Counted from the first letter of the stretch, positions 10,372-63,121 are shown. The stretch is DNA of 64,000 nucleotides from an uncultured Candidatus Saccharibacteria bacterium (GCA_964612745.1 CAZTCH010000001.1:77387-141386), one strand, 5' to 3'. Notes: a model not told the origin generated them from the letters alone. Numbers and translations: made by a program.

Positions 10372-10533
10372 GAGGAGAGAAGAAATAGAAGAGTGAGAAG
10401 AAGTAGAAGAATTAGTAAGACGGAGAGTAGTAAAGAGTAAATGGTAAGTAGTAATTAGACAATACGTAATACGAAATTCGCAATTCGCAATTCATAATAC
10501 GCAATACGTAATTCTTAATTCCTAATTCCTCAA
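10372..10533. repeat. Intergenic low-complexity heptamer repeats (purine-rich gaagaag/tagtaag, then acgtaatacg/aattcgc family)
   Basis: Visible tandem 7-nt periodic units. Same motif family as other intergenic regions in this window. Confidence 0.6.
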
Positions 10534-11091
10534 GTGAAAGAGCAAGATTTATTGGTGCGGGTCGGCGTTGTGGCGGATGCTGCACAGCTGGCGGCAATAC
10601 AACAGCAGACGTGGGTTGCTACATATCCCAATGCGGAGTTGGGGGTGACCGCAGAAGGTATAGAGCAGTTAGGGTTTACTACCCCCGAAGCGGTGGCGCG
10701 TTGGGAGAAGATACTTGCACAGTTTACCGAAGAACGCTGTGTATTTGTCGTAGAGTGCGATGGTGTGGTTGTGGGGTATTGTTTTGTACGACGAGCTGAG
10801 ACCTTTGGTAAAATTCAAGCACTCTATGTGTTGCCAGAGCATCACGGAAAAGGGTTTGGGGGTGCTTTACTCCGTGCTGCATATGCCTATATCGGGGCGA
10901 ATATACCCATTGTGCTCTTGGTGGCTGACTACAACATCCGCAGTATCCAATTTTACGAACACCAAGGGTTCCATATGAGTGGAAAGACAAGTGTAACTCC
11001 ACCAGAACTTTCACCCAATGGAGTTCGTATTACGCAGTTGGAGATGTGCCGGCAACCTAAGAGTACAGAAGGATTACCTGCAGAATATTAG
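10534..11091 (+). CDS. GNAT family N-acetyltransferase
   Basis: 185 aa. Acetyl-CoA binding motif VLPEHHGKGFGGALL. Confidence 0.7.
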   Translation: MKEQDLLVRVGVVADAAQLAAIQQQTWVATYPNAELGVTAEGIEQLGFTTPEAVARWEKILAQFTEERCVFVVECDGVVVGYCFVRRAETFGKIQALYVLPEHHGKGFGGALLRAAYAYIGANIPIVLLVADYNIRSIQFYEHQGFHMSGKTSVTPPELSPNGVRITQLEMCRQPKSTEGLPAEY

Positions 11092-11116
11092 CTATTTATG
11101 GTATAATATACACACC

Positions 11117-11224
11117 ATGTTGCGAGATAGAAAAAAAGTACAACGATTATTCAGCATACTTGCTGCACTGATGGTGCTTGCTATGATTGCCATGGCAATT
11201 GGACCGTCCTTTTTAGGCTTTTAA
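11117..11224 (+). CDS. 35-aa small hydrophobic peptide, leaderless
   Basis: MLRDRKKVQRLFSILAALMVLAMIAMAIGPSFLGF. Preceded by the extended -10 tggtataat at 11099-11107, 9 nt before the ATG. No SD. Confidence 0.3.
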   Translation: MLRDRKKVQRLFSILAALMVLAMIAMAIGPSFLGF

Positions 11225-11258
11225 TTTTTTGTGTAGCTGGTTCTGCACATAAAACTGT

Positions 11259-11801
11259 ATGCGAAATGTAATCCTGAAGCCAAACGAAGAGATTGTAGTG
11301 GTGTTTCGCCAAAGCAGTGCAGTGCTGGTTCCTGCAGCAGTTCTTGCTTTGCTATTGCTCGTTGCCCCATTATGGTACGCTGCCCGTCATGCTGCTCTTG
11401 GGGGTTTGTTTGCGGTGTATCCAGTTTGGGCGCTGCTCGTTGTGGTGTGGTTCTTGCACAAGTTTTTTTTGTGGCACAGAGAAGTATATGTAATTTCGAC
11501 TGGCCGGTTTATAAAAATGTCTCACGAGAGCTTGTTTCGCAGAACAGTTTCTGAAACGGCGCTCGATCGAGTTTTAAATGTCAGCTTGCGCACGACTGGG
11601 CCATGGTCAATGCTCGCTGGCTTTGGGGATATAGATGTGCAAGTGGTCGGTAGGGTAGAACCGCTTGTAGTGCGCTCGGTGGCGAGACCAGCAGAGGTAA
11701 AAGAGTTCTTGTGGCGATTACACGAACAAGTATTGGAACGTTCGGGTAGGGTGCATGGTATGCAGGAGTTTTCCACGCCACAGCAAAAAATAGTAAATTA
11801 G
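11259..11801 (+). CDS. Membrane protein with bacterial PH (bPH_2, YdbS/T-like) domain
   Basis: 180 aa: two TM helices then a soluble domain. Pattern resembles bPH_2. Confidence 0.5.
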   Translation: MRNVILKPNEEIVVVFRQSSAVLVPAAVLALLLLVAPLWYAARHAALGGLFAVYPVWALLVVVWFLHKFFLWHREVYVISTGRFIKMSHESLFRRTVSETALDRVLNVSLRTTGPWSMLAGFGDIDVQVVGRVEPLVVRSVARPAEVKEFLWRLHEQVLERSGRVHGMQEFSTPQQKIVN

Positions 11802-11805
11802 TTTC

Positions 11806-12183
11806 ATGCTTCCACAAAAACCAAAAATATCTTTCATGTCGAGCCGGTTTGTGGTTGTGTTACTTTTAGGCAGTCTGGCGATTCTTTCTTTGTCCCAGTA
11901 TCAAAAGTGGGAAGCACAGAAAAAGATTCAAAAGCAAATAGACGCACTCAAAGCAGAGTCGCAAGAAATTGGTGAAAAAAATGCGCAGTTGGAAAGTTCG
12001 CTGCAGTACTTGGCAAGCGCAGCAGCTACCGAACGCTTAGCAAGGCAGCAGTTAAATATGAAAAAAGATGGAGAAGTTGCTGTGGTGTTTCTTGCGGGAA
12101 CCAAAGAGACAGCCGAGCAAGTAGCAGAATCCAAGCAAATTCCTGTTTGGAAGCAGTGGTGGGAGTATTTCTTTGTACATTAG
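11806..12183 (+). CDS. Septum formation initiator family protein (FtsB/DivIC-like)
   Basis: 125 aa: N-terminal TM, coiled coil, and conserved ERLARQQLNMKKDGE motif. Confidence 0.6.
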   Translation: MLPQKPKISFMSSRFVVVLLLGSLAILSLSQYQKWEAQKKIQKQIDALKAESQEIGEKNAQLESSLQYLASAAATERLARQQLNMKKDGEVAVVFLAGTKETAEQVAESKQIPVWKQWWEYFFVH

Positions 12184-13971: not shown

Positions 13972-14047
13972 GCCGGCTTAGCTCATCTGGTAGAGCGAGG
14001 GTATCGTAAACCCTAGGTGATCGGTTCGAGTCCGATAGCCGGCTCCA
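13972..14047 (+). tRNA. tRNA-Thr (anticodon CGT)
   Basis: Hand-folded cloverleaf: acceptor GCCGGCT/AGCCGGC, D-arm GCTC..GAGC, anticodon stem AGGGT/ACCCT with loop ATCGTAA, T-arm ATCGG-TTCGAGT-CCGAT. CCA is encoded. Confidence 0.85.
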
Positions 14048-14051
14048 GCCT

Positions 14052-14220
14052 TCGCCAAGGCTATGGCTGGCTTACGCCACTGTAGATTTTGTGAGGATTG
14101 GCACTGCGGTTATAGTATTTACGAAAAAGAAGGCTGCGCGCCGAAGCTTCACGCGAAGGCGGGCATTTTATCGCCAAGGCTACGGCTGGCTTACGCCACT
14201 GTAGATTTTGTGAAGATTGA
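14052..14220 (+). repeat. Two 49-bp near-identical direct repeats (14052-14100 and 14172-14220) immediately 3-prime of tRNA-Thr
   Basis: cgccaaggctatggctggcttacgccactgtagattttgtgaggattg versus cgccaaggctacggctggcttacgccactgtagattttgtgaagattg. Each contains the hairpin agcctt-cgcc-aaggct. Confidence 0.7.
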
Positions 14221-22021: not shown

Positions 22022-22477
22022 ATGAGTCAATTACAGTTAGTTTTGGTGAGTCCAGAGCGAACTATGTATAGTGGTTTTGCCGAGAGCGTGAGTTGCCAAA
22101 CAGAAGACGGCGAGATTACTATTTTACCGCACCATACGCCGTTGTTAACAACACTACGCGCTGGTGAGTTGCGCGTACTGGTAGATGGACAGGTGCAGCT
22201 ATTCCACGTTGGGGGCGGTTTTGCAGAAGTGCAAGCTGGATCTTTGGTTATTATTTTGGCAGACGCCAGTGAACGTGTCTCAGAAATTGATGCAGAACGC
22301 GCGGCAGATGCATTGCAAAGAGCGAAAGAACGGTTAGCGCAAGAATCGTTAACCGATAGGGAATATGCAGCTGTTGCATCGTTAATAGAACGAAATGCAG
22401 CTCGCTTGCAAATTACTCGAAAGCATTCACACAGAAGGCGCAGTCCGGTGACGAGTGAGGGAGTGTTGGAGGAATAG
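22022..22477 (+). CDS. atpC: F0F1 ATP synthase subunit epsilon
   Basis: 151 aa. Final gene of the operon, with a beta-sandwich plus helical C-terminal pattern. Confidence 0.75.
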   Translation: MSQLQLVLVSPERTMYSGFAESVSCQTEDGEITILPHHTPLLTTLRAGELRVLVDGQVQLFHVGGGFAEVQAGSLVIILADASERVSEIDAERAADALQRAKERLAQESLTDREYAAVASLIERNAARLQITRKHSHRRRSPVTSEGVLEE

Positions 22478-22965
22478 AGAATAGAGAATAGAGGGTAGAG
22501 GGTAGAGGGTAAAAAAACTTTTTGCATAGCAAAAAGTTTTTTTAGTACTATTTTCGAATTACGAATTACGAATTACGAATTACGCATTACGAATTACGCA
22601 TTACGAATTACGCATTACGTATTTTGATTTTCTACTTACTACTTTCTACTTACTGATTACTAATTCTTCTATTTCTTCTGTACTTATTACGCATTACGAA
22701 TTACGCATTACGTATTTTGATTTTCTACTTACTACTTTCTACTTACTGATTACTAATTCTTCTATTTCTTCTGTACTTATTACGCATTACGAATTACGCA
22801 TTACGTATTTGTAATTATCTGTTGTGGATATATTATTTTGTATTTGAATTTCTCTTTCAATTCTCTACTCTCTATTCTCTTTTTACTATTTTCTACTTAC
22901 TAATTACTCTTTACTATTCTCTACTCTCTATTCTCTACCCTCTATTTTAAAAAGTTATCAACAAT
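22478..22965. repeat. Composite intergenic repeat region: purine-rich heptamer arm, aattacg/cattacg heptamer tandem, a 91-bp tandem repeat (about 2.3 copies, 22599-22810), and a pyrimidine-rich arm that is the reverse complement of the first arm
   Basis: Direct reading. gagaata/gagggta units at 22478-22510. The 91-bp unit (ttacgcattacgaattacgcattacgtattttgattttctacttactactttctacttactgattactaattcttctatttcttctgtacttat) repeats at about 22599 and 22689. ctctaccctctatt arm at 22900-22960. Confidence 0.7.
22511..22543. terminator. Strong bidirectional rho-independent terminator after the atp operon
   Basis: aaaaactttttgc-ata-gcaaaaagttttt perfect stem, flanked by A and T runs. Confidence 0.6.
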
Positions 22966-22971: not shown

Positions 22972-23001
22972 TTGACATTGAATTTCGTTACTCGCTATAA
23001 T
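22972..23001 (+). promoter_or_regulatory. Consensus sigma70-like promoter (TTGACA, 18 nt, TATAAT)
   Basis: -35 at 22972-22977, -10 at 22996-23001, at the end of the repeat region. Confidence 0.5.
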
Positions 23002-23235: not shown

Positions 23236-23319
23236 ATGGCAGCAAAGAAAAAAGCCAAAAAGGCTACAAAGAAGACCGTCAAGAAGGCAACCAAAAAGGC
23301 CTCCAAGAAGCGTCTTTAA
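23236..23319 (+). CDS. 27-aa Lys/Ala-rich basic peptide (MAAKKKAKKATKKTVKKATKKASKKRL), histone H1/Hc1-tail-like
   Basis: ATG with a GGAG SD 10 nt upstream, in-frame TAA, followed within 30 nt by a perfect terminator hairpin. Not in the supplied ORF track because it is under 60 aa. Confidence 0.45.
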   Translation: MAAKKKAKKATKKTVKKATKKASKKRL

Positions 23320-23348
23320 TTTGTTCTTCGCTTAGGCGAAAACAAATA

Positions 23349-23385
23349 TAAAACCACTAAGTTTTTACTTAGTGGTTTTATTTAT
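23349..23385 (+). terminator. Rho-independent terminator
   Basis: aaaccactaagt-tttt-acttagtggttt then tatttatg. Confidence 0.6.
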
Positions 23386-35306: not shown

Positions 35307-35317
35307 TTTTTTATACT

Positions 35318-39092: not shown

Positions 39093-39378
39093 GGTAACTA
39101 AGTTACAAATACGTAATTCGTAATGCGCAATGTGAAATCAGAATTCAGAACTCCGAAACAAACTCCAATCCACAATCCGCCAAACGGCGGAGGCGGACGA
39201 AATCTAAGTTTTAAACATTGGGATTTATTCTTGATGGGCTCTGTGTATAGTTTACAGTTTTGAGTTGAAGTTTTGCGTTTTGACTTTTGAATTTTGAGTT
39301 ACATTTGTATTTATTTGGGCTTTGTCCGCCAGCTGGCGGATTGGAATTTATTTGAATTTGTTGTTTGTTATTTGGTAT
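39093..39378. repeat. Dispersed intergenic element containing a 52-bp conserved motif (39250-39301) flanked by an internal inverted repeat (ccaatccgcc...ggcggattgg)
   Basis: gtttacagttttgagttgaagttttgcgttttgacttttgaattttgagtta is identical to 44719-44770. Heptamer ttttgNN periodicity. Confidence 0.55.
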
Positions 39379-43259: not shown

Positions 43260-43576
43260 GGGGTAAGAGAGAATAGAGAGTAGAGGTTAGAGAATAGTAA
43301 GACAGGAATGAGGAGTTAGGAATTAGGTTGTCGTTCGACCCTGAGCTCACGGCCTAAGGGTAGGGAGTAGTAAAATAAATTCCAAATCTCAAGCACCAAA
43401 TAACAATAAATTCCAAAATCCAAAGTAAAAACTAGTAAGTCAAAACTGTAAACTTTCAATACATTTCAGTTTTGAGTTTACAGTTGCAGTTTTGCGTTTT
43501 GACCTTTCAGTTCTCAGTTTTATGCTTTTATTTAGCATTTAGCATTTAGCACTTAGCACTTAGTACTCGTTCAACT
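43260..43576. repeat. Intergenic heptamer-repeat element (purine arm, 52-bp motif variant at 43467-43522, ttagcat/ttagcac tandem)
   Basis: Direct reading. Same architecture as 39093-39378 and 44633-44930. Confidence 0.55.
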
Positions 43577-44632
43577 ATGAACTACTTACTCTATTGCGGT
43601 ATTGCATGTGTGTTGGCACTGGTGATTACGCCTTTGGTGCGTAAGCTGGCTTTTCGCCTTGGGTGCGTCGATAGACCGCAGGGCGGCAGGCATATTCACA
43701 CGAAAGAAACTGCTTTACTGGGCGGTTTAGCTGTTATCTTCTCTATGGTGTTAGCGGGTGGACTCTATGTGCTTTCTGGTAGTTTTGATTTTTCTGTGGT
43801 TCCTACCAAATTTGTGGTTGGCATTGTCACCGGCGTGTTCCTGCTAGTGTTGGGTGGATTTTTTGATGATAAATATACGCTACCCGCTCGCTACTCGTTT
43901 GTGTTTCCAGCGCTTGCTGCGGCGGCGGTAGTAGCTTCGGGGGTAGGTGTGGGGATCACTATATTGACCAACCCATTTGGTGGCGTAGTCCACTTGGGTA
44001 CTCTGTGGTTGGGTGTGCCAATCTCCGCGGTCTTCGTGTGGTTGTGGATTGTAGGTATGACGTACACCACCAAGCTACTGGACGGCTTAGATGGTTTAGC
44101 TGCAGGAGTGTCGCTCATTGGTGGTTTGGTTATGTTTGCTCTGTCACTCACAGATAAAGTTAACCAACCAGTCACGGCAACCCTGGCAATAATTTTTGTG
44201 GGGGCACTTGCTGGCTACTTGTTTTACGCGTTTAATCCTGCCTCTATCTTTTTAGGTGAAATTGGCAGCACATTTCTTGGCTTCTTTCTCGCGGTGCTCG
44301 CGGTGTTAACGGGAGCAAAAATTGCTACTGCGGTACTTGTGATGGGGATTCCGATTTTTGATGTAGCTTGGGCAATTGTCCGCAGACTCTGGCGACGACA
44401 AAATCCATTTGTGGGGGATAGAGAGCATTTGCATTTTCTGCTACTCGATGCAGGGCTTTCACAGCGACAAGCGGTGTTGGTGTTTTACGCACTTGCAGGC
44501 TTGTTTGGCTTTGTAGCAGTGTTCCTACAAAGCATGGGTAAGCTGGTGGCGCTATTTTTACTTTTGGCAGTCATGGTGGGGATTGTAGGGGCTCTGGCGA
44601 GAGTGTATAGGAAGAAGACTAGTAACGAGTAA
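43577..44632 (+). CDS. Glycosyltransferase family 4 polyprenyl-phosphate sugar-1-phosphate transferase (WecA/MraY family)
   Basis: 351 aa, 10-11 TM helices. The N-terminal pattern and conserved cytoplasmic loops match the MraY/WecA superfamily. Confidence 0.7.
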   Translation: MNYLLYCGIACVLALVITPLVRKLAFRLGCVDRPQGGRHIHTKETALLGGLAVIFSMVLAGGLYVLSGSFDFSVVPTKFVVGIVTGVFLLVLGGFFDDKYTLPARYSFVFPALAAAAVVASGVGVGITILTNPFGGVVHLGTLWLGVPISAVFVWLWIVGMTYTTKLLDGLDGLAAGVSLIGGLVMFALSLTDKVNQPVTATLAIIFVGALAGYLFYAFNPASIFLGEIGSTFLGFFLAVLAVLTGAKIATAVLVMGIPIFDVAWAIVRRLWRRQNPFVGDREHLHFLLLDAGLSQRQAVLVFYALAGLFGFVAVFLQSMGKLVALFLLLAVMVGIVGALARVYRKKTSNE

Positions 44633-44930
44633 CTAGTTGCGAGTTGCGAGAAAGATTAAGGAAAAGAGAGTAGAGAGTAGAGAATAGAGAGTAGAACTCA
44701 AAACTGTATTGCATTGAAGTTTACAGTTTTGAGTTGAAGTTTTGCGTTTTGACTTTTGAATTTTGAGTTAAGCTTGTGTTTATTTGTGCTTTTGATATTG
44801 TAATTTATTTGATATTTCGTGCTTGTTATTTGGTGCTTCTTGCAACCTACCCTCTATTTCTTCTAACTCTTCTAACTCTTCTCCTTCTAAAACTCTCCTA
44901 AAACTGGGCATTTTGGCTTACCACCCCTAA
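44633..44930. repeat. Intergenic heptamer-repeat element with the 52-bp motif (44719-44770)
   Basis: Purine arm gagagtagagaatagag, the exact 52-bp motif, a T-rich middle, and a pyrimidine arm ctctatttcttctaactcttc. Confidence 0.55.
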
Positions 44931-44931
44931 T

Positions 44932-44960
44932 TTGACATAATTTATACCAAAAGGTATAAT
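44932..44960 (+). promoter_or_regulatory. Consensus sigma70-like promoter for rplU (TTGACA, 17 nt, TATAAT)
   Basis: -35 at 44932-44937, -10 at 44955-44960. Confidence 0.55.
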
Positions 44961-45028
44961 ATTTGGGCAATTTGTTGAGGTTTTTCTCATTTTTGTTTTA
45001 CGATAAATATTTTTAAATTCCTGCATTT

Positions 45029-45334
45029 ATGATCGCTGTATTCGAAACTGGTGGAAAGCAATACTTGGTTTCCAAAGGAACAAAAGTCCAGGTGGAAAAG
45101 CTCCCGGGCGTAAAAGGTGACAAACTTGTTTTTGACAAAGTATTGTTTACTGCTGAAGGTACTGATTACTCCGTTGGCAAGCCATACATTTCTGGCGCAA
45201 GCGTAGAAGCAGAGATCTCCAAGCAGGGCCGTGGCAAAAAGATCGAAGTGCTCAAGTACAAGGCAAAGTCCAAGTACCGCCGCAAGATTGGTCATCGCCA
45301 AGCATATACTGAAGTAGAAATCACCAAGATATAA
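45029..45334 (+). CDS. rplU: 50S ribosomal protein L21
   Basis: 101 aa. MIAVFETGGKQYLVSKGTKV is a conserved L21 N-terminus. No rpmA follows. Confidence 0.9.
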   Translation: MIAVFETGGKQYLVSKGTKVQVEKLPGVKGDKLVFDKVLFTAEGTDYSVGKPYISGASVEAEISKQGRGKKIEVLKYKAKSKYRRKIGHRQAYTEVEITKI

Positions 45335-45336
45335 AA

Positions 45337-45367
45337 AAACGACTCCCTCGAGGAGTCTTTTTTTATA
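45337..45367. terminator. Bidirectional rho-independent terminator
   Basis: aaaaaacgactcc-tcgagg-agtcttttttt. Confidence 0.6.
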
Positions 45368-45529
45368 GCTTCTTAGCTTTCAGCTTCTTAGCTTACAGCT
45401 TCTCAGGCGAGCTCCTAACTCCTATCTTACTATTCTCTAACCTCTACTCTCTACTCTCTCATTCGTCATTACCCCCATCGTTACCTGTATTCCTAAAAGC
45501 TAAGAAGCTAAAAAGCTAGCAGCTAGCTT

Positions 45530-46153
45530 TTAGTATTCTCTCCGTCCTTCCATCGCGCGGGAGAGCGTAATTTCGTCTGCGTATTCTAAATCTCCACCCA
45601 TAGGAAGTCCGCGAGCGATGCGGGTAATGCTCAGGTCAGGGAATTGCGTGCGCAGCTGTTTGGAAAGGTGGAGCGCAGTTGTTTCGCCTTCGAGTGTTGG
45701 ATTTGTAGCAATGATTATTTCTGTAATAGGGGTACCGCTTTCTGCTCTGCTCGTTTCTATGCGGTGGAGTAGAGAGCGGATGTTTAGCTTGTCTGGGCCA
45801 ATTCCTTCCATAGGGTTCAGAACACCACCCAAGACGTGGAATGCCCCTTTAAAGCTCCCTGGTTTGTCTATAGCAATGGCATCCATGGATTCTTCTACAA
45901 CACACACCAGTTGCTGGTCGCGACTGGTGTTGGCGCATGTAGCGCATGTAGTGCTATCTGCCATAATGTGGCACGTGGCACAGTACTGCACCCCATCTTT
46001 CAGTCTACGGACACTTTCGGAAAACATGTCTAGTTCAACAGCGTCACGCTTTAACAGGTAAAAGACGAGGCGTTGTGCAGACTTGGGGCCAACACCGGGG
46101 AGTTTTGCAAATTCATTTATTGCTCGTTCGAGCGATTGTGGTAGGGAAGTCAT
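45530..46153 (-). CDS. recR: Recombination protein RecR
   Basis: 207 aa. HhH LPGVGPKSAQRL, C4 zinc finger CATCHIMADSTTCATC, and a Toprim domain. Confidence 0.85.
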   Translation of the reverse strand: MTSLPQSLERAINEFAKLPGVGPKSAQRLVFYLLKRDAVELDMFSESVRRLKDGVQYCATCHIMADSTTCATCANTSRDQQLVCVVEESMDAIAIDKPGSFKGAFHVLGGVLNPMEGIGPDKLNIRSLLHRIETSRAESGTPITEIIIATNPTLEGETTALHLSKQLRTQFPDLSITRIARGLPMGGDLEYADEITLSRAMEGRREY

Positions 46154-46199
46154 AATAAGAGGGCTAAGTAAAAAATGCTGAGTGCGAAGTGCTTAGTGC

Positions 46200-46562
46200 T
46201 TAGTGAATGCCGGAGATTAGCTTGTTGAGCATTTTCTGGATTTCTATGGTTAGTGGTAGTGCCTTATCGTTTGGAACTGTTGGATACATCATTTGTATAA
46301 TAAGAAGCTGAGTTTCCACTTCCGCAGCAGAAGCATCTGCAATTTTTAGGAATTGCTTAAACTCAGCTCTGCCATTTCTTTTGAAACCCTCTGCAATGTT
46401 TGAGGGTATAGAGATTGCTGCCCTTGTGATTTGAGCACTGAGAATGTATGTTTCTGTGCGAGGGAGCATATTTGTGATCTTGTAGATTTCTCTTACAAGG
46501 ACCATACCTTTTTGCCAGACAACTAAGTCTTTAAAATTGGTAATAGGCATATTTGTAATCAC
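46200..46562 (-). CDS. Four-helix-bundle protein (TIGR02436 family, as often found in rRNA intervening sequences)
   Basis: 120 aa. Motif ISIPSNIAEGFKRNGRAEFKQFLKIADASAAEVETQLLI. Confidence 0.6.
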   Translation of the reverse strand: MITNMPITNFKDLVVWQKGMVLVREIYKITNMLPRTETYILSAQITRAAISIPSNIAEGFKRNGRAEFKQFLKIADASAAEVETQLLIIQMMYPTVPNDKALPLTIEIQKMLNKLISGIH

Positions 46563-46575
46563 TAAGCACTAAGAA

Positions 46576-47985
46576 CTAAGCACTTTCTTCTGTTGGGGGC
46601 GCAGACACGCTATTCATCACCGCTTGTGGGCTGGTGTCGAACGTGCGGTCGAGGTTTTTGAAGCTCGCTTTTTCTGCGTCAAAGAACAAGTCGACTTGGC
46701 CGACTGGTCCGTTTCTATGCTTGCGAACATGGATTTCTGCTACGTTTGGTCGTCTGGAGTCGCGACCCTTGTACATGTCTTCACGGTAAATAAACATAAC
46801 GACGTCCGCATCTTGTTCAATAGATCCAGATTCACGAAGGTCAGATAGCTGTGGCACTTTGTCTGGTCTGTTTTCTACGTTACGAGACAGCTGGGAGAGT
46901 GCGAGTACTGGTACGTTTAACTCACGAGCCAGAATTTTTAAGTTACGAGAAATTTCGCTTACTTCTTGTACGCGGTTGTCGCCACCTGCGTTCTTACCTT
47001 GCATAAGCTGCAAGTAGTCAATTACCAGCAAGCTAATACCGTGCTCGCTTTGCAAACGTCTGGCTTTGGTGCGGACTTCCATAACGTTGGCACCAGCAGC
47101 ATCATCAATATAAATAGGAGCTTCGGACAGCGCACCCATAGCTTCGCCCAGAAGGCTAAAGTCGTCGTCGGTCAGGTGTCCTGTTCGAATTTTAAATAAG
47201 TTTACGCCACTCTGGGACGAGAGGAGACGGTCTACCAATTCGTCCTTACCCATTTCTAGAGAAAATATAGCTACTGGCTTTTTGCTGTGCACACCGACAT
47301 GGCGAATAATGTCCAACGCGAGGGACGTTTTACCCATGGAAGGACGAGCAGCCAAAATAACAAGGTTGGATTTTTGCAGCCCACTCAGGAGTTTGTCCAA
47401 GTCCAAAAAGCCGGTTGGGACACCACGGAGTGCGCCTGCGTCACGGTGGAGCTCGTCAATTCGCTCAAACGTTTCGTGCAAAATAGTATTAATTGCAACA
47501 AAGTTTTGCTTTAAGTGTTTTTGCGAAACGCCATACAACCGTTGTTCTGCTGTGTCTAAAATGTCTTCTACTTCACCTTCTTCGCGGTAGGCGAGTCGGG
47601 TAATTTCTGTGGCGCTATCTATCAGTCTTCTGAGTGTTCCTTTTTTTCTGACAATGCCAGCGTAGTGCACCACGTGAGCAGAGGTTGGCACGGCATTTAC
47701 CAGACTGGTGATGTAGCCAGCGCCACCAGCACGTTCCAAAAGTCCTTGCTCTTCCAGCAAGTTAGACACGGTCAAGATGTCTATGGAAATGCTTTTTTCG
47801 AACAAATCTAAAATGGCACCGTACACCGTTCTGTGCCGTACATCGTAAAAATCTTCTTGAATAACTAAATCCGCCACTTTAATAATGGCGTCTTTGTCGA
47901 GCATTAAACAACCCAAAACAGATTGCTCTGCTTCGAGGTTTTGTGGGGGGAGTTTGTCCAGTGCGGAAATGGTGACTTGGTTCAT
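46576..47985 (-). CDS. dnaB: Replicative DNA helicase DnaB
   Basis: 469 aa. Walker A ARPSMGKTS and conserved DnaB N-terminal and C-terminal domains. Confidence 0.9.
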   Translation of the reverse strand: MNQVTISALDKLPPQNLEAEQSVLGCLMLDKDAIIKVADLVIQEDFYDVRHRTVYGAILDLFEKSISIDILTVSNLLEEQGLLERAGGAGYITSLVNAVPTSAHVVHYAGIVRKKGTLRRLIDSATEITRLAYREEGEVEDILDTAEQRLYGVSQKHLKQNFVAINTILHETFERIDELHRDAGALRGVPTGFLDLDKLLSGLQKSNLVILAARPSMGKTSLALDIIRHVGVHSKKPVAIFSLEMGKDELVDRLLSSQSGVNLFKIRTGHLTDDDFSLLGEAMGALSEAPIYIDDAAGANVMEVRTKARRLQSEHGISLLVIDYLQLMQGKNAGGDNRVQEVSEISRNLKILARELNVPVLALSQLSRNVENRPDKVPQLSDLRESGSIEQDADVVMFIYREDMYKGRDSRRPNVAEIHVRKHRNGPVGQVDLFFDAEKASFKNLDRTFDTSPQAVMNSVSAPPTEESA

Positions 47986-48193
47986 ACGGAAGTAGTGCTA
48001 AGTGCTCAGTGCTCAGTGTCTAGTCAGGAAGAAGACGAAGGAACACTCCAGTTGTCTGTATGGATTGTAGCAATTTACCGGTAGAATAGCTATTGACTTT
48101 TGTGCACATTTTCTGCATAATACAAGAAAATGCAATGGTTTTTTTGCAAGCGCAAATAAAGCTGTTGTCCCCAAAAATCTGTGGAGGAGAATT

Positions 48194-50773: not shown

Positions 50774-50807
50774 GGACCTAATTGTGACGGCCGTCACAAT
50801 TAGGTCC
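50774..50807. promoter_or_regulatory. 34-bp perfect palindrome (GGACCTAATTGTGACGGCCGTCACAATTAGGTCC), copy 1, overlapping the 3-prime end of the regulator gene
   Basis: Exact palindrome. Identical copy at 51377-51410. Confidence 0.6.
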
Positions 50808-51360
50808 TAACACGAAACAGCTTACGAAGGTCTGTGTCGTCTTCAAAGTTTGCGCGAGCAATACGGATATATCGTAACAGTCCTGATTTTTTAAGTAGCG
50901 CTAGCGCTTCTGGGCTAATTGGATGTGGGCTTACATAGATACTTGCTTGCAGGCACAAAAACCCTAAATCGCGTAATGAGTGGCGTAGCTGTGCTCGTAT
51001 GCTGCGCGCTTGTTCGGGTATATCGAACATAATCAGTCGCCAACTACCATCCCAAATTACCGGTTTAGGGTGCATGTGTACAGCAGCGATGAGTGCTTCT
51101 ATTTCTCCTTTGTTTGTGAGACGAAAGATTTTTCGCGCTTCTTTGTATTCAGTTTTAATCCAGCCTTGGTTATGCAGTCTGCGAAGTGTTCGGTCTAGTT
51201 TCTTTTCTCGAAAGTAGCGAGCAACCTCAGGAGCGGCTGCACTGCTCAGTGACTTGCGTCCTAGTGTATCTCCAAAAGCTGATTGGGCAGCTAAAAGGTA
51301 TAAAAGAACGTGAGTGGTCTTGGTTAACTGTTTGCTGTCTCGTACATAAAGTGTCTGCAT
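50800..51360 (-). CDS. PaaX-like winged-helix transcriptional regulator (Cas2-fold C-terminal domain)
   Basis: 186 aa. C-terminal motif WDGSWRLIMFDIPEQARSIRAQLRHSLRDLGFLCLQASIYVSP matches the PaaX_C pattern. N-terminal wHTH. Confidence 0.55.
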   Translation of the reverse strand: MQTLYVRDSKQLTKTTHVLLYLLAAQSAFGDTLGRKSLSSAAAPEVARYFREKKLDRTLRRLHNQGWIKTEYKEARKIFRLTNKGEIEALIAAVHMHPKPVIWDGSWRLIMFDIPEQARSIRAQLRHSLRDLGFLCLQASIYVSPHPISPEALALLKKSGLLRYIRIARANFEDDTDLRKLFRVRT

Positions 51361-51376
51361 ATAGTATTTTTCTTTT

Positions 51377-51410
51377 GGACCTAATTGTGACGGCCGTCAC
51401 AATTAGGTCC
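51377..51410. promoter_or_regulatory. 34-bp perfect palindrome, copy 2, 17 nt upstream of the regulator start codon
   Basis: Identical to 50774-50807. Candidate operator. Confidence 0.6.
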
Positions 51411-53266: not shown

Positions 53267-53530
53267 TTTTTATTTCTGTAGTGAACTAGATATGTAAGTA
53301 TTGTATCAAGAAAGTTTACTTGGGGGAATGGAGAAGGCGATAGAGAATAGAGAGTAGAGAGTAGAGAATAGTAAGATAGAAATAAGGAGTTAGGAATTAG
53401 AAATTAGTAACGAGTAACCAGTAGCTAGTAACGAGACAGAAAAAATTGAAAATTAAAAATTAAAAATTATATTCTCTCTAACTCTTCTATTTCTTCTAGC
53501 TTCCTAATACCTAGAAAGCTGAAAAGCTAA
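53267..53530. repeat. Intergenic heptamer-repeat region (purine arm gagaatagagagtag, then aaattaaaaatt, then pyrimidine arm)
   Basis: Direct reading. Confidence 0.5.
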
Positions 53531-55582: not shown

Positions 55583-55663
55583 GCACAAAATTCGAAAATA
55601 GATAATTTAAAACTCAAAAGTCAAAACTTCAGGTCAAAACTTTAAACTCTTGAAAAGGGTTAC

Positions 55664-55700
55664 CCTTGTGCAGCACAAAGGTAACCCTTTTGCGTTCTCT
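55664..55700 (+). terminator. Rho-independent terminator after map (gggttaccc hairpin family)
   Basis: aaaagggttacccttgtgcagcacaaaggtaaccctttt. Confidence 0.55.
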
Positions 55701-55901
55701 ACGTTCCATCTGTCAGTGCATGTTAGATGGTGCCCTCAAGTCCTAACTGAAAGTTTCTAACTTTTGAGTTGCAGTTTTGCGTTTTGACTTTTGATTTTTG
55801 GGTTAAAGGTTTAAGTCTTTATCTATCTTTTCAAGCCCATATTTCTTTGTTTTTCCGCTATAATTGGACATATTTTCCATATTGCCGTGTTCCTGAATGT
55901 G

Positions 55902-55910
55902 TGGTATAAT
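55902..55910 (+). promoter_or_regulatory. Extended -10 element TGGTATAAT, with about 190-nt structured 5-prime UTR before the RRM protein gene
   Basis: gtggtataatttaca. The same 14-mer type is seen at 11099 and 53566. Confidence 0.4.
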
Positions 55911-56102
55911 TTACATATCATCTTAAGTCTAGTTTCTTTACATTTGTTCGGGCTACTTTTTGGTTAGTGATTTTGAGACTGCGTTGCAGTCCAGCTCATC
56001 GTACGGTCTGTGAGCCAGTGGGCAATAGATAGTGAGAACGAAACTTGTTTTATATATATAGTTAGAGTGGAAGATGAGCTCTAACCAAAGGAAGCCAAAC
56101 AA

Positions 56103-56501
56103 ATGGCAGTAAAATTATACGTCGGTAACCTCTCTTACGGTGCTACCGATCAGGCTCTTGAAGAAGCTTTTGGTAAAGCTGGTAAAGTAGAGTCTGCACA
56201 AGTTGTCATCGACAAAATGACCGGTCGCTCTCGCGGTTTCGGTTTTGTAGAGATGGACACCAAAGAAGCAGCAGATGCAGCTATCGAACTTTGGAATGGC
56301 AAAGAACTCGATGGTCGCACCTTGACTGTAAACGAAGCTCGTCCTCGTGAAGAACGCCCAGCAGGCGGTCGCGGTGGATTCGGCGGCGGTAACCGTGGCG
56401 GTTTCGGCGGCGGTCGCGGTGGTGACCGTGGTGGCCGTGGTGGTTTTGGTGGTGGTCAAAACGACAACAACCAAGACGGCGGACGCACTTGGCAGTTCTA
56501 G
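56103..56501 (+). CDS. RRM-type glycine-rich RNA-binding protein
   Basis: RNP2 LYVGNL and RNP1 RGFGFVEM motifs. C-terminal GGRGGFGGG repeats. Confidence 0.8.
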   Translation: MAVKLYVGNLSYGATDQALEEAFGKAGKVESAQVVIDKMTGRSRGFGFVEMDTKEAADAAIELWNGKELDGRTLTVNEARPREERPAGGRGGFGGGNRGGFGGGRGGDRGGRGGFGGGQNDNNQDGGRTWQF

Positions 56502-56982: not shown

Positions 56983-57150
56983 AAGCTTCTTAGCTTGCTA
57001 GAAGCAGAAGAAATAGAAGAAATAGAAGAGTTAGAAAAAGGCGCTTAGAGATTGGTTTTTCTACTCTCCCCGCACTTTGCGGGGTCTCGATACTGCATCG
57101 GGGCTAATCTCTACTCTCTACTCTCTATTCTCTCGTTATTTACTCCTAAT
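56983..57150. repeat. Intergenic heptamer repeats (purine arm agaagaaatagaag, pyrimidine arm tctactctctattctc)
   Basis: Direct reading. Confidence 0.5.
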
Positions 57151-59339: not shown

Positions 59340-60803
59340 ATGGCAAACGAAGTTGTATTACGTTTCTCCGAAGTCACTTTTGAATACTCACACCAGCGTC
59401 ACCTGCTAGAAGAGGCGTCTTTTTCTGTGCGTTCAGGAAGCCGTATGGCACTGATGGGTCAGAATGGGGCAGGGAAGTCCACGTTGTTCAAAATGATTAC
59501 CGGTGAACTGCAACCAAACGAAGGACAGGTTATTTTAACCCCGCGCGACACCACTGTAGCGATTGCAAGGCAAGTCATGCCTGCAGAGCACATGGATTTG
59601 TCTGTACGCGATTACTTTGCGACTGCGTTTACCGAGAAGAAATACAACCTAGACAAGCTTATTGTCAACGTGTTTGCTGTGGTGAACTTGGACGTTCCTC
59701 TGGAAAAAACTATCCGAGAGTTTTCCGGTGGGCAACAGGCACGATTGCTTTTGGCGTACGCTATTATCCAAGAGCCGGACATTCTGCTGCTCGACGAGCC
59801 TACCAACAACCTAGACCAAGCAGGTATAGAACACCTGACAGGGTTTTTGATGATGTACGAAAAGACCTGTATTGTTATTTCCCACGATGCGGATTTCTTG
59901 AACGCATTTACCGATGGTGTGTTGTACTTGGATTCATTTACTAAAAAAGTAGAACAGTACACAGGGAACTACTACGACGTGGTAGAAGAAATTGGCAAAC
60001 GGATTGAGCGAGAAAACATGCAGAATGCTCGAGCAGAAGGGGAAGTTAAACGCCTCAAAGCACAAGCAGAACAATTCGCCCACAAAGGGGGAAAACTGCG
60101 TGCAGTAGCAAAGCGTATGCGTGAGTCTGCCGAAGAAGCAGAAGACACCATGGTAGATGTGCGCAAAGAAGATAAGACAATTCGCGAGTTTACTATTCCT
60201 ACACAAGAGTATCCGAACTTCTTTAATGGACAAGTAGTGCAAGTTACTTCTGTCTTTGCAGTAAAGCACGGCAAAGTGCAAGAAAAAGAAAAAGAGATTA
60301 CTGTCCGCCGTGGGAGCCATATCCTTATTTCTGGACCAAACGGTATTGGCAAGAGCACATTTTTGGACGCACTCGCACATGGTAAAGCAGCTGGCGCAAA
60401 GATTGCCGATGGCATTGTGACTGGCTACTACAAACAAGATTTCTCCATGCTCAATTTTGCGGAGACTGGCTTGGACTCGCTCCTTGGGGTTATGCAGGAA
60501 AAGGATGAGCAGTTTGCTCGCTCTGTGGCAGCAGGATTTTTGCTTGATGGAAAAGTGTTGGCAACAGATATCGGTGCTATGTCCGAAGGGCAAAAAGGTT
60601 TGCTTGCGTTCTGCCGACTGGTGTTAATGAAACCAGGGTTGCTAATATTGGACGAGCCGACCAACCATATTAACTTCCGCCACTTACCGGTAATCGCCAA
60701 AGCGCTGGATGAATTCGAAGGCGCGCTGATAATGGTGTCCCATATTCCTGATTTCGTGTCGCAGATTCGCATAGACGAAGTAGTAGATTTGAGTACCATA
60801 TAA
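59340..60803 (+). CDS. ABC-F family ATPase (tandem ABC domains, no TMD; EttA/Uup/YbiT-like)
   Basis: Two Walker A motifs (GQNGAGKST; GPNGIGKST), two signature motifs (SGGQQ; SEGQK), and a charged inter-domain linker of about 80 aa. Confidence 0.8.
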   Translation: MANEVVLRFSEVTFEYSHQRHLLEEASFSVRSGSRMALMGQNGAGKSTLFKMITGELQPNEGQVILTPRDTTVAIARQVMPAEHMDLSVRDYFATAFTEKKYNLDKLIVNVFAVVNLDVPLEKTIREFSGGQQARLLLAYAIIQEPDILLLDEPTNNLDQAGIEHLTGFLMMYEKTCIVISHDADFLNAFTDGVLYLDSFTKKVEQYTGNYYDVVEEIGKRIERENMQNARAEGEVKRLKAQAEQFAHKGGKLRAVAKRMRESAEEAEDTMVDVRKEDKTIREFTIPTQEYPNFFNGQVVQVTSVFAVKHGKVQEKEKEITVRRGSHILISGPNGIGKSTFLDALAHGKAAGAKIADGIVTGYYKQDFSMLNFAETGLDSLLGVMQEKDEQFARSVAAGFLLDGKVLATDIGAMSEGQKGLLAFCRLVLMKPGLLILDEPTNHINFRHLPVIAKALDEFEGALIMVSHIPDFVSQIRIDEVVDLSTI

Positions 60804-60964
60804 GAGAGAGTAGAGAATAGAGAATAGGGTATACAAAAAGACCGCTTAAGCGGTCTTTTTGTTTTACTACAACCTAGCTCCTAATTCCTAGCTCCTTTTT
60901 TCTTGTGTATACTGAACGTACTTGTAGGATCAAAAATAAGGCACACTCAAAGAAAGGAGGAGTT

Positions 60965-61117
60965 ATGTCTGAACTAGTAATCATTCGACCAATCGACATG
61001 GAGCGAGCCGGTAGAGAGTTACTGGCAGGGCTTGAAGCTTTGGAGTTGTCTCTGGCTGAGCAGGAAGTAACAAAATTGGTTAGCACAAAGCTGACTTTGT
61101 ATCGCTTTACTGTGTAG
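60965..61117 (+). CDS. 50-aa small protein of unknown function
   Basis: Strong SD aaggagg 4-9 nt upstream. Extended -10 tgtgtatact at about 60905. Confidence 0.4.
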   Translation: MSELVIIRPIDMERAGRELLAGLEALELSLAEQEVTKLVSTKLTLYRFTV

Positions 61118-61275
61118 TAAGGCACTCTCTGTTTTGGGGAAGAGATTCCCCATTTTTTTATGTTATACTAAGGTAGACGAGAGTACACCCTAAACACATA
61201 TAAACATAGAGCATGTAAGCATTTAAGCAAGGAAAAGAAACTTATGTTTAGATGTTTATATGATTCAATGTTAAA

Positions 61276-62493
61276 ATGACTCCTATGCAGCCTCTTGCAG
61301 CACGGCTCCGGCCAAACAATTTAGATGAGTATGTAGGCCAAGAACACTTGGTCGCTTTGGGTAAGCCGTTGCGCATGGCAATAGAGCAGAAGCATTTGTT
61401 TAGTTTTATTCTTTGGGGGCCACCAGGGGTGGGTAAGACTACCTTGGCGCGCATATATGCACAGGCGCTCGGTGCAGAATTCTACGAGCTCTCTGCAGTC
61501 TCTGCCGGCAAAGAAGATATAAGAAAAATTGTAGAGCCATCCAAATCTACGAATGAGACGAATCTACAGATACCTACAAATAAATCCCAAATACTTTTTT
61601 TAGATGAAATCCACCGCTTTAACAAAGCACAGCAAGATTTTTTGCTGCCATATGTAGAAAGTGGAAAGCTGACTTTAATTGGTGCGACTACAGAAAATCC
61701 GAGCTTCGAAGTTATCCCTGCACTCCTGTCCCGTTGCAGAGTATTTACCTTAAAGGAGCTTACGGAAAGCCAGATGCGCGAAGTTATTACTCGTGCGCTT
61801 GCATCACTGCAAACTGATCCCTCAGGTTCCTCCCCTAAAATAGGGGAGGGTAGGTGGGGTATGGACGAAGAAGCAATCACGTGGCTGGTATCCATGGCAA
61901 ATGGCGATGCGCGCCAAGCTTTGACCATGTTGGACAACACCGCACAGCTGTACTCAGAAATTACCATAGAGACACTGAAAGAAACATTGCAGTCGAAAAC
62001 GCTGCGCTACGACAAAGCAGGGGAAGAGCACTACAATACCATTAGCGCGTTTATTAAAAGCATGCGCGCTTCGCAGCCAGATGCAGCGCTCTACTACTTG
62101 GCGCGCATGGTGGAAGCAGGGGAAGACCCTCTGTTTATTGCCAGACGTATGGTGATTTTTGCTTCGGAGGACATTGGGCTTGCGCAACCAACTGCACTTG
62201 TTGTTGCCAACGCTGTGTTTGCAGCGTGCCAGAGTATTGGGTATCCTGAATGCGCTATTAATCTTGCGCATGGGGTGGCGTATCTTGCCCAGTGCAAAAA
62301 AGACCGCAGCGCGTACGACGGCCTGCGAGCGGCGCAAGCTGACGTAAAGAACATGGGTAACTTGCCCATTCCACTTAAGGTACGCAACGCACCCACCAAG
62401 CTTATGAAGGCAGAGGGGTATGGCAAAGGGTACGAAATGTATTCAGACGAAAGCTTTTTGCCAGAAGAATTGAACAAGCGCAAGTATTTGTAA
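61276..62493 (+). CDS. rarA: Replication-associated recombination protein A (AAA+ ATPase RarA/MgsA)
   Basis: 405 aa. RLRPNNLDEYVGQEHL, Walker A GPPGVGKTT, and conserved C-terminal MgsA domains. Confidence 0.85.
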   Translation: MTPMQPLAARLRPNNLDEYVGQEHLVALGKPLRMAIEQKHLFSFILWGPPGVGKTTLARIYAQALGAEFYELSAVSAGKEDIRKIVEPSKSTNETNLQIPTNKSQILFLDEIHRFNKAQQDFLLPYVESGKLTLIGATTENPSFEVIPALLSRCRVFTLKELTESQMREVITRALASLQTDPSGSSPKIGEGRWGMDEEAITWLVSMANGDARQALTMLDNTAQLYSEITIETLKETLQSKTLRYDKAGEEHYNTISAFIKSMRASQPDAALYYLARMVEAGEDPLFIARRMVIFASEDIGLAQPTALVVANAVFAACQSIGYPECAINLAHGVAYLAQCKKDRSAYDGLRAAQADVKNMGNLPIPLKVRNAPTKLMKAEGYGKGYEMYSDESFLPEELNKRKYL

Positions 62494-62498
62494 TATAT

Positions 62499-63032
62499 AT
62501 GAAAATAATTGACCTCACACAAACTATTGAAAGCGGGATGCAGGTGTACACAGGAGATCCGAAAGTCGAAATAGAGACAGTACAGTCGGGGGGCGCGGAA
62601 GGGTGGCGATTGCAGAAACTAACTCTTGGCTCGCACACTGGTTCGCATGTAGATGCGCCGTACCATATGGCGGAAGCTGGTGCGACACTCGACACGTTAC
62701 CACTCGAACGCTTTTTTGGTGATGCCGTTATTGCAAGTACGGACACAGAATTTCCCAAACATGTGGGACTCGTGTTTCGAGACGAGCAGTTGGGCGAAGA
62801 CTTGTTGCCACGATTTATTTTGGCTGGTACGCCTTTTGTGGTAGTAGGGGACAAAGCGCATATGGAGCTAGCGCTCGAACGGCAACTGCTGAGCCGAGAT
62901 ATTTTAACGTTTACTGATTTGATTAATTTGTCCGAACTGCCTTCCGAAAAGCACTTTGCGTTTTACGGTATTCCACTAAAGATAAAGAATAGTGATGGCT
63001 CACCTATACGCGCGTTTGCGATTGTGGACTAA
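62499..63032 (+). CDS. Cyclase family protein (kynurenine formamidase-like)
   Basis: 177 aa. Metal-binding motif HTGSHVDAPYH. Confidence 0.65.
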   Translation: MKIIDLTQTIESGMQVYTGDPKVEIETVQSGGAEGWRLQKLTLGSHTGSHVDAPYHMAEAGATLDTLPLERFFGDAVIASTDTEFPKHVGLVFRDEQLGEDLLPRFILAGTPFVVVGDKAHMELALERQLLSRDILTFTDLINLSELPSEKHFAFYGIPLKIKNSDGSPIRAFAIVD

Positions 63033-63121
63033 GTAGGCAGAAGTAGCGAGTAACTAGTAGCTAGTAACGAGAAAGAAAAGAGTCGTTACACCATAAAGAA
63101 TAATAAATAAGATACAAATCC

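Follow-up and report, generated by a model that had tools for sequence, protein, structure and literature searches.

The DNA analyzed here, referred to throughout as the window, is a single 64,000-nucleotide stretch (GCA_964612745.1, CAZTCH010000001.1:77387-141386) with positions counted from its first letter, and our subject is the set of 7-nt tandem repeats that fill a number of its intergenic spacers, together with a small four-helix-bundle gene that lies between two inverted arrays of such repeats. The gene content of the window includes lepA, a single atp operon, rplU, recR, dnaB, glycosyltransferases and DUF4012 and PMT_2 proteins; G+C content is ∼45% and GC skew is strongly positive. 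The best matches to its DnaB, reaching 94% amino-acid identity, are named Candidatus Doudnabacteria, so that the window belongs to a genome of the Candidate Phyla Radiation (CPR, Patescibacteria) and, judging from these protein matches, its host is Candidatus Doudnabacteria. A Shine-Dalgarno-like motif (GGAG, GAGG or AGGA) precedes the start codon in only 7 of 53 window genes, and translation in this lineage thus appears to start largely without Shine-Dalgarno pairing. The possibility that the purine-rich repeat arms described below serve as Shine-Dalgarno sites was rejected, since the genome scarcely uses such motifs.

The periodicity of the intergenic DNA is strong. Pooled over 8.3 kb of spacers, self-identity at lag 7 is 0.352, compared with 0.270 ± 0.005 after dinucleotide-preserving shuffling (z=16.4), and harmonics follow at lags 14 (z=10.4), 21 (z=8.0) and 28 (z=5.2), while the coding DNA of the window shows period 3 only. 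A simple tract caller returns 34 period-7 tracts across 53 kb, 32 of them intergenic and distributed over ∼13 spacers, as against 0-5 tracts at each of periods 8-12, and Tandem Repeats Finder recovers the same arrays. The heptamer periodicity proposed in an initial annotation of this DNA is therefore borne out, as are the unit families named there (AGAGART/AGAGGGT, MATTACG, AGTTTTG-type, TTAGCAC, AGCTTCT(T) and TAATTCC); in all 12 of the spacers that it listed lag 7 is the strongest of lags 2-12, with z values between 2.8 and 16.1. Its statement that almost every spacer above 100 bp is built in this way goes too far, as among the 28 spacers of 100 bp or longer just 10 reach z≥3 at lag 7, and one arm-bearing spacer, 55583-56102, was absent from its list.

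Misassembly is common in low-complexity repeats, and we have asked whether the arrays might be an assembly or sequencing artefact. A contig assembled independently in Logan from run SRR12762304 is 100% identical to window positions 44802-46698, a distance of 1897 bp that includes four arrays, so the repeats are not the product of one assembler. This contig does end at 44802, just past a duplicated module, a point that would suit an artefact; against it, the arrays respect gene boundaries and the same architecture is found in complete cyanobacterial plasmids and in many unrelated assemblies. Taken together these observations make an artefact extremely improbable.

The features of the repeat-bearing spacers are as follows, with the strand in parentheses where one is assigned.

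10372-10458 (+): purine-rich arrays (GAAGAAGTA-type 9/18-mers, then AGTAAAG heptamers) directly after the lepA stop codon.
10460-10533 (+): CAATACG/TAATTCC array running up to the start of a GNAT gene; no inverted partner of at least 14 nt in the spacer.
22469-22515 (+): purine arm (AGAGAAT)3(AGAGGGT)3, with the atpC stop codon TAG in the first unit.
22510-22544 (+): terminator-like hairpin directly 3' of the purine arm, within the arm pair.
22548-22810: interior arrays MATTACG and CTACTTA, including a 93-nt higher-order repeat (22593-22810).
22857-22946 (+): pyrimidine arm (AYTCTCT and others) that complements 22473-22505, followed by a 12/12 promoter at 22972-23001.
39107-39381: CGTAATT-type, AGTTTTG-type and ATTTGTT arrays and a dispersed module, 39249-39376.
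43264-43327 (+): composite purine arm of AGAGART, AGTAAGA and AGGARTT, 4 nt past a glycosyltransferase stop codon; composite copy 1.
43464-43569 (+): AGTTTTG-type and TTAGCAC arrays, ending 7 nt short of the next start codon.
44617-44696 (+): AGTAACG/AGTTGCG and (AGAGAGT)n purine arm, across and after a stop codon.
44695-44838 (+): a 14-nt CAAAACT/AGTTTTG hairpin without mismatches, together with the second copy of the dispersed module.
44846-44905 (+): pyrimidine-rich block (TCTTCTAAC 9-mers), then a 12/12 promoter, 44932-44960, for rplU.
45362-45529: AGCTTCT(T) arm, 45362-45403, and its complement, 45493-45529, with a reverse-complement composite copy, 45412-45463, inside.
46167-46209: (AGTGCTT)n arm flanking the four-helix-bundle gene at its 3' end.
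46200-46550 (-): four-helix-bundle gene (PF05635/TIGR02436; S23p/Avd-like), 116 aa, between inverted arms.
46555-46591: (ACTAAGC)n arm flanking the same gene at its 5' end and extending into the end of dnaB.
47992-48024: (AGTGCTN)4 array upstream of dnaB, the sole array found also in relatives L001 and L412.
53338-53500 (+): composite purine arrays AGAGART, AGGAATT, AGTAACG and AAAAATT (composite copy 3) and a short pyrimidine block, in a divergent promoter region.
55604-55804: CAAAACT-type arm, 55604-55642, and AGTTTTG-type arm, 55759-55804, around a terminator-like palindrome, 55653-55691.
57006-57136 (+): AGAAGAAAT purine block and (CTCTACT)n pyrimidine array, loosely complementary, ending 16 nt before the next start codon.
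60802-60897 (+): (AGAGART)n arm at a stop codon, perfect 15+15-nt terminator palindrome (60833-60862) and pyrimidine-rich block.
63042-63074 (+): AGTAGCG/AGTAACT array, 9 nt past a stop codon, with no partner arm.

The spacers have a fixed polarity, as had been claimed, with purine-rich DNA first and pyrimidine-rich DNA last. Using as criterion a difference in purine content of more than 0.1 between the first and last 40% of a spacer, 10 of the 12 listed spacers are polar in this sense (mean difference 0.23), as opposed to 1 of the 18 remaining spacers that reach 100 bp (mean 0.00). The purine arms begin at or just after stop codons; that of atpC lies inside the first AGAGAAT unit, and other arrays start 4, 27, -2 and 9 nt from theirs.

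The further proposal that the two blocks are reverse complements of one another survives in part, complementary arms being genuine in about 4 to 6 spacers. Four pairs are clear, 22473-22505/22914-22946 (33 nt, 85%), 45362-45394/45493-45525 (22-29 nt, 79-91%), 46181-46206/46559-46584 (26 nt, 88%, with arms that flank a gene instead of sharing one spacer) and 55604-55642/55759-55797 (39 nt, 77%), and two more, at 44695-44735 and 53355-53480, are weak and short. Five spacers are without a pair of heptamer arms: no ungapped inverted pair of at least 14 nt was found in 10372-10533, 56983-57150 or 63033-63120, the sole pair in 60804-60900 is the terminator palindrome, and that in 43260-43576 is weak and lies outside the arrays. 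Predicted folding likewise gives a mixed picture, with minimum free energy z scores of -5.9 to -3.5 in five of them and 0 to -2 in the rest, and spacers not listed are often equally structured. A search of the whole window against Rfam at the gathering threshold found just two tRNAs and nothing inside the repeat spacers, and searches of two structured regions at an E-value threshold gave sub-threshold noise and no family in a repeat spacer.

The suggestion that the arrays form a terminator/insulator system, in which arm pairs stop transcription or three-frame TAG arrays stop stray translation between operons, has several of these observations on its side. The beginnings of purine arms coincide with stop codons or lie no more than ∼27 nt from them, terminators are found between arms and promoters after them, and, because 7 mod 3 = 1, an array of any unit that contains TAG closes every reading frame within 21 nt; TAG is moreover enriched on the inward-reading strand of arms around four-helix-bundle genes (57%, see below). 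As terminators, however, the arrays do not qualify, for they have neither a short G+C-rich stem nor a T tract, and the canonical terminator-like hairpins stand apart from them, between or beside the arms (22510-22544, 45341-45357, 55653-55691 and 60833-60862), while perfect 12/12 sigma-70-type promoters lie 3' of the pyrimidine arms at 22972-23001 and 44932-44960. In several spacers the partner arm is missing, the preference for TAG is not shared by TAA or TGA, and relatives with the same gene order do without arrays. An insulator role for read-through transcripts is possible; as an account of the system as a whole we regard this explanation as improbable.

Portions of the arrays recur in separate spacers. 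The composite at 43268-43326 is found again at 53342-53400 (59 nt, 92%) and, as its reverse complement, at 45412-45460 (49 nt, 92%), and a module of ∼125 nt is common to 39249-39376 and 44718-44838, one copy of which holds an extra GC-rich palindrome. Since the composites repeat the same ordered series of variant units from spacer to spacer, local slippage alone is insufficient to account for them. Within 22593-22810 a 93-nt higher-order unit is present in 2.3 copies at 98-100% identity, a duplication that is, by its near identity, recent. The notion of a heptamer-slipping process offered in the initial annotation is thus plausible as one component, considering this duplication, a 37-nt indel within an arm that distinguishes L137 from L139, two close relatives, and the variation in heptamer number among Coxiella strains (PMC4990558), but the dispersed composites exceed what local slippage would produce.

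Comparison with relatives covers other Doudnabacteria loci and the L137/L139 pair. The syntenic loci are ∼70% identical to the window in nucleotides, and their DnaB proteins are 85-94% identical. Gene order is the same, and four spacers that measure 317, 396, 286 and 278 bp in the window correspond to ones of 72, 152, 86 and 155 bp in the relatives. Relatives L001, L003 and L412 are sparse in heptamer tracts, L001 having one in 17 kb, namely the (AGTGCTN) array upstream of dnaB that it has in common with the window. A further relative, L005, is as dense as the window (11 tracts, 0.53 per kb) and uses another unit, CTAATTY, both for tight inverted pairs that form hairpins and for the flanks of its own four-helix-bundle gene. 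By accession, the relatives GCA_018060695.1 and GCA_964648985.1 are sparse in heptamers and GCA_964490395.1 is dense. Short spacers with few or different heptamers in syntenic relatives make the bloom of repeats in the window lineage-specific, in agreement with the earlier proposal.

These comparisons bear on whether the heptamers are cis-regulatory RNA sites, that is, whether in untranslated regions they bind a single-strand RNA-binding protein (S1, cold-shock or RNA recognition motif (RRM) type) that controls translation or mRNA stability, as has been proposed for the TAACTGA repeats of Beggiatoaceae (MacGregor 2015). Arrays end 0-16 nt before the start codons at 10534, 43577 and 57153, the Shine-Dalgarno motif is hardly used (7 of 53 genes), the purine strand is biased toward the sense strand, and the window encodes an RRM-type RNA-binding protein at 56103-56501. 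Yet there are many units in one genome and other units at the orthologous genes of relatives, syntenic relatives manage without arrays altogether, the dispersed modules occur in both orientations relative to transcription, and some arms, placed between a terminator and the next promoter, would rarely be transcribed. We think it unlikely that regulation of this kind explains the arrays.

The only four-helix-bundle gene of the window belongs to PF05635 and TIGR02436 and has a weak match to Avd of diversity-generating retroelements (DGR). It lies between dnaB and recR, exactly between the inverted (AGTGCTT)n arms, and on its sense strand the (AGTGCTT)n heptamers run up to the start codon. Its ortholog in L412, again between dnaB and recR and ∼72% identical in nucleotides, has arms of the same unit family, whereas the gene of L005 is found at a different location with inverted CTAATTY arms. 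Besides this ortholog, L412 (run SRR14234032) has a second four-helix-bundle gene at 3195-3611, immediately following recR, which shows gain and loss of such genes at neighboring spacers within the clade.

In order to quantify the association we considered 80 unselected metagenomic loci of the gene family, 69 of which have enough flanking DNA on both sides. The gene has period-7 tracts on both flanks, no more than ∼130 nt away, in 34 of the 69 (49%) and on at least one flank in 81% of loci, compared with 2 of 69 (2.9%) and 23%, respectively, for other complete genes in the same loci; for tracts on both sides the odds ratio is 32.5 (p=1.4e-10). The median inverted-repeat score of the gene flanks is 16, against 8 in random windows. 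At loci with two arms the unit consensus of one arm is complementary to that of the other, with at most one mismatch, in 25 of 38 cases, and as the units differ between loci this complementarity amounts to covariation. The arms are situated ∼13 nt ahead of the start codon and directly adjoin the stop codon. Among 102 inward-reading arm units TAG is present in 57% and AGT in 41%, where a given trinucleotide is expected in ∼10% of 7-nt units by our own estimate (7/64), and the share of C among their bases is 11%; purines exceed 0.6 of the 5' arm in 30 of 52 loci and fall short of 0.4 in 2. Selection for stops in three frames as the sole cause of the polarity was rejected, as the enrichment involves TAG and the non-stop AGT and does not extend to TAA or TGA.

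The same association is seen in Nostocales, Chloroflexota, Bacteroidota and Xanthomonadales. Among 72,556 plasmids there are 29 records with homologues of the gene, mainly from Nostocales, which are classical heptamer-rich taxa, and 4 of 6 plasmid loci inspected have complementary arms. On a Nostoc edaphicum plasmid the arrangement is (GGGAGTA)8-gene-(TCCCTAC)5, between nrdB and nrdA, and on plasmids of N. punctiforme and Aulosira it is (CAGGAGT)n-gene-(ACTCCTG)n, while a Xanthomonadales metagenome-assembled genome (MAG) has (YAGTGRT)8 upstream of the gene and a short complementary arm downstream. On plasmid pANA02 of Anabaena sp. 90 (L407) a four-helix-bundle gene with (CAGGTGA)/(TCACCTG) inverted arms sits between cas6 and cas4 in a CRISPR-Cas locus. 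Our literature search, incomplete for subscription journals, turned up no paper that links four-helix-bundle genes outside rRNA with heptamer arms; a prior description is possible.

A genome scan with (AGAGART)3 matches at least 120 stretches from many phyla. Among the matches listed, a complementary arm of (AGAGART)n is found downstream in 15 cases and upstream in none, and the purine strand coincides with the sense strand of the upstream gene in a ratio of 64:18, a ratio that falls to 51:32 when the arrays are flipped in silico. Arrays bring open reading frames (ORFs) to an end, so that a part of this orientation bias is an artefact of ORF calling; the real bias is about 2:1. Seven of the loci listed hold a four-helix-bundle gene, in six cases between inverted arrays, and these six include Prevotella and two Chloroflexota in which the cassette is situated between pheS and pheT. 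In the latter two, L058 (4354-4950, Chloroflexus MAG) and L069 (2606-3230, Anaerolineaceae MAG), the (AGAGART)-armed cassette occupies the same pheS/pheT site, which is either an old conserved insertion or a preferred site. AGAGART as a privileged unit was considered and dropped, there being no evidence that it is commoner in viral contigs than heptamers of matched composition. One of the matched heptamers, as (GAAGART)3, does stand out in those contigs, with at least 120 stretches, at least fourfold the count of the other three (20-29 each), and some viral contigs carry many copies (loci L258-L337 and beyond).

The chief rival to the reading that we favor holds that the arrays are plain long simple-sequence repeats, microsatellites that arise by independent slippage in each spacer, are neutral, are tolerated solely in non-genic DNA and have no identity as elements, with four-helix-bundle genes landing or persisting in permissive DNA. 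A length of 7 nt has been proposed to match the polymerase footprint, and heptamers are reported to be the commonest class of long simple-sequence repeat in many bacteria, with polymerase slippage as the proposed cause (Mrazek 2007, as summarized in PMC4679880 and PMC4692102). In the data presented here 32 of 34 tracts are non-coding, arrays differ between relatives, indels fall inside the arrays of close relatives and (AGAGART)3 does not exceed its composition-matched controls in viral contigs, all as slippage would have it. What slippage does not provide is a reason for ordered series of variant units to recur across spacers at 92-93% over 49-125 nt in both orientations, for polarity to be fixed (10/12 vs 1/18 spacers, 15 vs 0 among the matches listed, 30 vs 2 loci), for arms to covary around a gene in 25 of 38 loci with TAG and AGT enriched in their units, or for (AGTGCTT) arms to be conserved around the gene at ∼72% nucleotide identity. 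We therefore assign this explanation a clearly smaller probability than the one that follows, while treating it as a serious contender.

The explanation we prefer, and to which we would give roughly an even chance of being correct, is that the spacers represent a lineage-specific bloom of palindromic heptamer-repeat elements that resemble intervening sequences (IVS) of rRNA, share the architecture of the four-helix-bundle arms, grow by slippage and can be processed by RNase III. Such an element would comprise a C-poor arm, rich in purines or in G+T and usually containing TAG or AGT, and a later, complementary pyrimidine arm, with a terminator hairpin, other arrays or a gene between the two. 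This would be the same architecture that brackets the S23p/Avd-like (PF05635) genes of many phyla, that of the window among them, and that forms the stem of the Coxiella IVS cleaved by RNase III. Slipped-strand mispairing would lengthen and shorten the arrays, some transposition or recombination step would copy composite blocks between spacers, and the complementarity of the two arms would be maintained. When both arms are co-transcribed they may pair to a long double-stranded RNA stem that RNase III could cut, which would make insertions tolerable between housekeeping genes. The elements are probably for the most part selfish or neutral.

A number of results weigh against this interpretation. 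Just one of the ∼13 array-bearing spacers contains a four-helix-bundle gene, and a six-frame hidden Markov model search of all spacers for decayed copies gave a best E value of 0.7; the arrays without an ORF may hence be an independent phenomenon into which the genes merely insert. Half of the listed spacers offer no clear complement to their arm. The arms of the largest spacers are separated by a terminator and would share a transcript only after read-through, and cleavage by RNase III is itself extrapolated from rRNA intervening sequences. The polarity of L005 is opposite to that of the window, with the pyrimidine-like arm first. In viral contigs AGAGART has 29 matches and the composition-matched AAGGART, AGGAART and GAAGART have 20, 29 and at least 120, respectively; given that AGAGART does not rise above its controls, its wide occurrence is no evidence of function. 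Finally, no target-site duplication or defined element ends were found, and at ∼70% nucleotide identity the spacers of even the nearest relatives cannot be aligned as empty and filled sites.

A bolder version takes the scattered heptamer arrays of bacteria (the STRR of cyanobacteria, the heptamers of Xanthomonas and Beggiatoaceae and those of the window) to be, in place of ordinary microsatellites, arms or orphaned arms of one widespread class of mobile cassette built around an Avd-like four-helix-bundle gene, the non-ribosomal counterpart of the IVS. The protein would have a part in the copying, spread or maintenance of the arms, perhaps aided in trans by a reverse transcriptase or RNase III. 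If so, the 7-nt register and the TAG/AGT core would reflect the cassette machinery and not polymerase slippage alone. We consider this version doubtful, somewhat more so than plain slippage.

Several points make the system worth pursuing. The heptamer repeats are extended to the CPR, where in a reduced genome each extra spacer of 300 bp is conspicuous, and the PF05635/TIGR02436 gene is homologous both to Avd, an accessory protein of DGR, and to the S23p ORF of 23S intervening sequences. In about half of the unselected loci this gene lies between inverted heptamer arrays that have a polarity and a TAG/AGT core in common, an unexpected association that provides a testable handle. Should the link prove causal, cyanobacterial-type heptamer repeats (short tandemly repeated repetitive sequences, STRR), rRNA intervening sequences and an orphan four-helix-bundle family would become connected, and RNase III processing would suggest itself as the reason that the insertions are tolerated inside essential operons. 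Should it not, the window shows an ordinary lineage-specific bloom of a known repeat class.

Other features of the window were noted in passing. The RRM-type protein encoded at 56103-56501 has a glycine/arginine-rich tail (NCBIfam NF058537, 'RNA-binding regulator'); RRM proteins with such tails are best known from cyanobacteria, likewise a heptamer-rich group. A lysine-rich ORF of 27 codons at 23237-23320 (MAAKKKAKKATKKTVKKATKKASKKRL), which resembles histone H1 or Hc1 and has no NCBIfam match, is preceded by the perfect consensus promoter 22972-23001 and followed by a strong terminator-like hairpin at 23348-23381. The 186-aa gene 50800-51360 is surrounded by two copies of a perfect 34-nt palindrome (GGACCTAATTGTGACGGCCGTCACAATTAGGTCC), at 50774-50810 and 51374-51410, and as its syntenic counterpart in relatives has a PaaX_M match they may function as operators or as a pair of bidirectional terminators. 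Just 3' of tRNA-Thr (13972-14047) a 49-nt direct repeat, 96% identical and with its copies 119 nt apart (14052-14100 and 14171-14219), may be an integration scar or an att-like duplication. Related terminator-like palindromes at 35266-35309 and 55653-55696 (AAAAGGGTTACCC...GGGTAACCCTTTT), 80% identical and 20 kb apart, are a second small family of dispersed hairpins, unrelated to the heptamers; that at 35266-35309 matches ftsZ-DE of Rfam only below threshold (E=0.0085).

It remains to place the repeats among known systems. They are not CRISPR or repetitive extragenic palindromic (REP) sequences, as had been stated at the outset, since the 7-nt units are contiguous, there is no family of identical 24-48-nt repeats with unique spacers, and the spacers hold no Rfam family or tRNA. 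Miniature transposable elements with inverted repeats (MITEs), REP sequences with the bacterial interspersed mosaic elements (BIMEs) that they form, and Correia-type elements are similar in being intergenic, with inverted arms, dispersed copies, occasional nesting and terminator hairpins between or beside the arms. They differ in that no target-site duplication, defined termini or cognate transposase was found here and in that the arms in the window are tandem heptamers of variable number instead of a fixed sequence; with respect to MITEs in particular, there are inverted arms and 2-4 partial copies at 65-93% identity, with ends that are undefinable and empty sites that are unalignable at ∼70% identity.

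The IVS of Coxiella burnetii 23S rRNA has a terminal inverted-repeat stem of 28 bp with an S23p ORF in its loop, and contains, in its 5' arm a short way upstream of the ORF, 2-3 tandem purine-rich GACAGAT heptamers, the copy number of which varies among strains; the first of these repeats is where RNase III cleaves (Warrier et al. 2016, PMC4990558). The cassette 46167-46591 is similarly a PF05635-family ORF within inverted repeats, with heptamers in the arm upstream of the ORF. The Coxiella element, on the other hand, sits in helix 45 of 23S rRNA and its excision by RNase III is proven, whereas the cassette of the window, known here from its sequence, is situated between dnaB and recR, and an ORF is absent from most arrays; insertion in a 23S rRNA helix (25 or 45) was not observed, there being no rRNA in the window.

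Arrays of TAACTGA are found in marine Beggiatoaceae, cyanobacteria and Bacteroidetes, and in Gramella and Aequorivita close relatives have shorter, repeat-free spacers (MacGregor 2015, PMC4679880). Like the arrays of the window these are intergenic, are often mixed with other heptamers and carry stop codons, in genomes that make poor use of Shine-Dalgarno sequences in the neighborhood of the repeats and with a patchy phylogeny. The Beggiatoaceae sets are mostly short and direct (2-6 copies), are placed 1 nt before start codons and include a single inverted case, while those of the window mainly follow directly on stop codons and commonly have paired arms. In Xanthomonas there are ∼185 GGGAATC arrays per genome, 70-75 of which form convergent inverted pairs (Rehm et al. 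2015, PMC4692102), and array lengths vary between related species with the single or paired type preserved (PMC4692102). The window shares with these the intergenic succession of a purine/G-rich heptamer array and its complement on the other strand. It differs in that the Xanthomonas units are G3 tracts that form G-quadruplexes, where runs of G3 occur in the window only in (AGAGGGT)3 at 22489-22511 and most units are incapable of forming quadruplexes, and in that its arms may be 100-400 nt apart, with a gene, terminators or other arrays enclosed.

The record of intergenic heptamer repeats in cyanobacteria goes back to about 1990, in which year Mazel et al. reportedly described the STRR of Calothrix and Nostoc. 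Three tandem heptanucleotides are on record for Calothrix. Intergenic heptanucleotide arrays have since been recorded in cyanobacteria, Xanthomonas, Beggiatoaceae and Bacteroidetes, and as these include purine/pyrimidine inverted pairs (PMC4692102, PMC4679880) the view that the window contains an element of unknown kind finds no support. A literature search found nothing on heptanucleotide repeats in Patescibacteria or Doudnabacteria. Like the STRR and other heptanucleotide long simple-sequence repeats, those of the window are head-to-tail 7-nt units in excess of chance, nearly all non-coding, present at many loci with several unit families per genome, and patchy, with presence and length specific to a strain or lineage and with shorter, repeat-free spacers in close relatives. 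They are set apart by a CPR host, by units that are A+T/purine-rich and very degenerate, and by composite blocks dispersed as copies. The repeats are thus real, if less extensive than the initial annotation had it, and are a case from a new phylum of a known and poorly understood repeat class.

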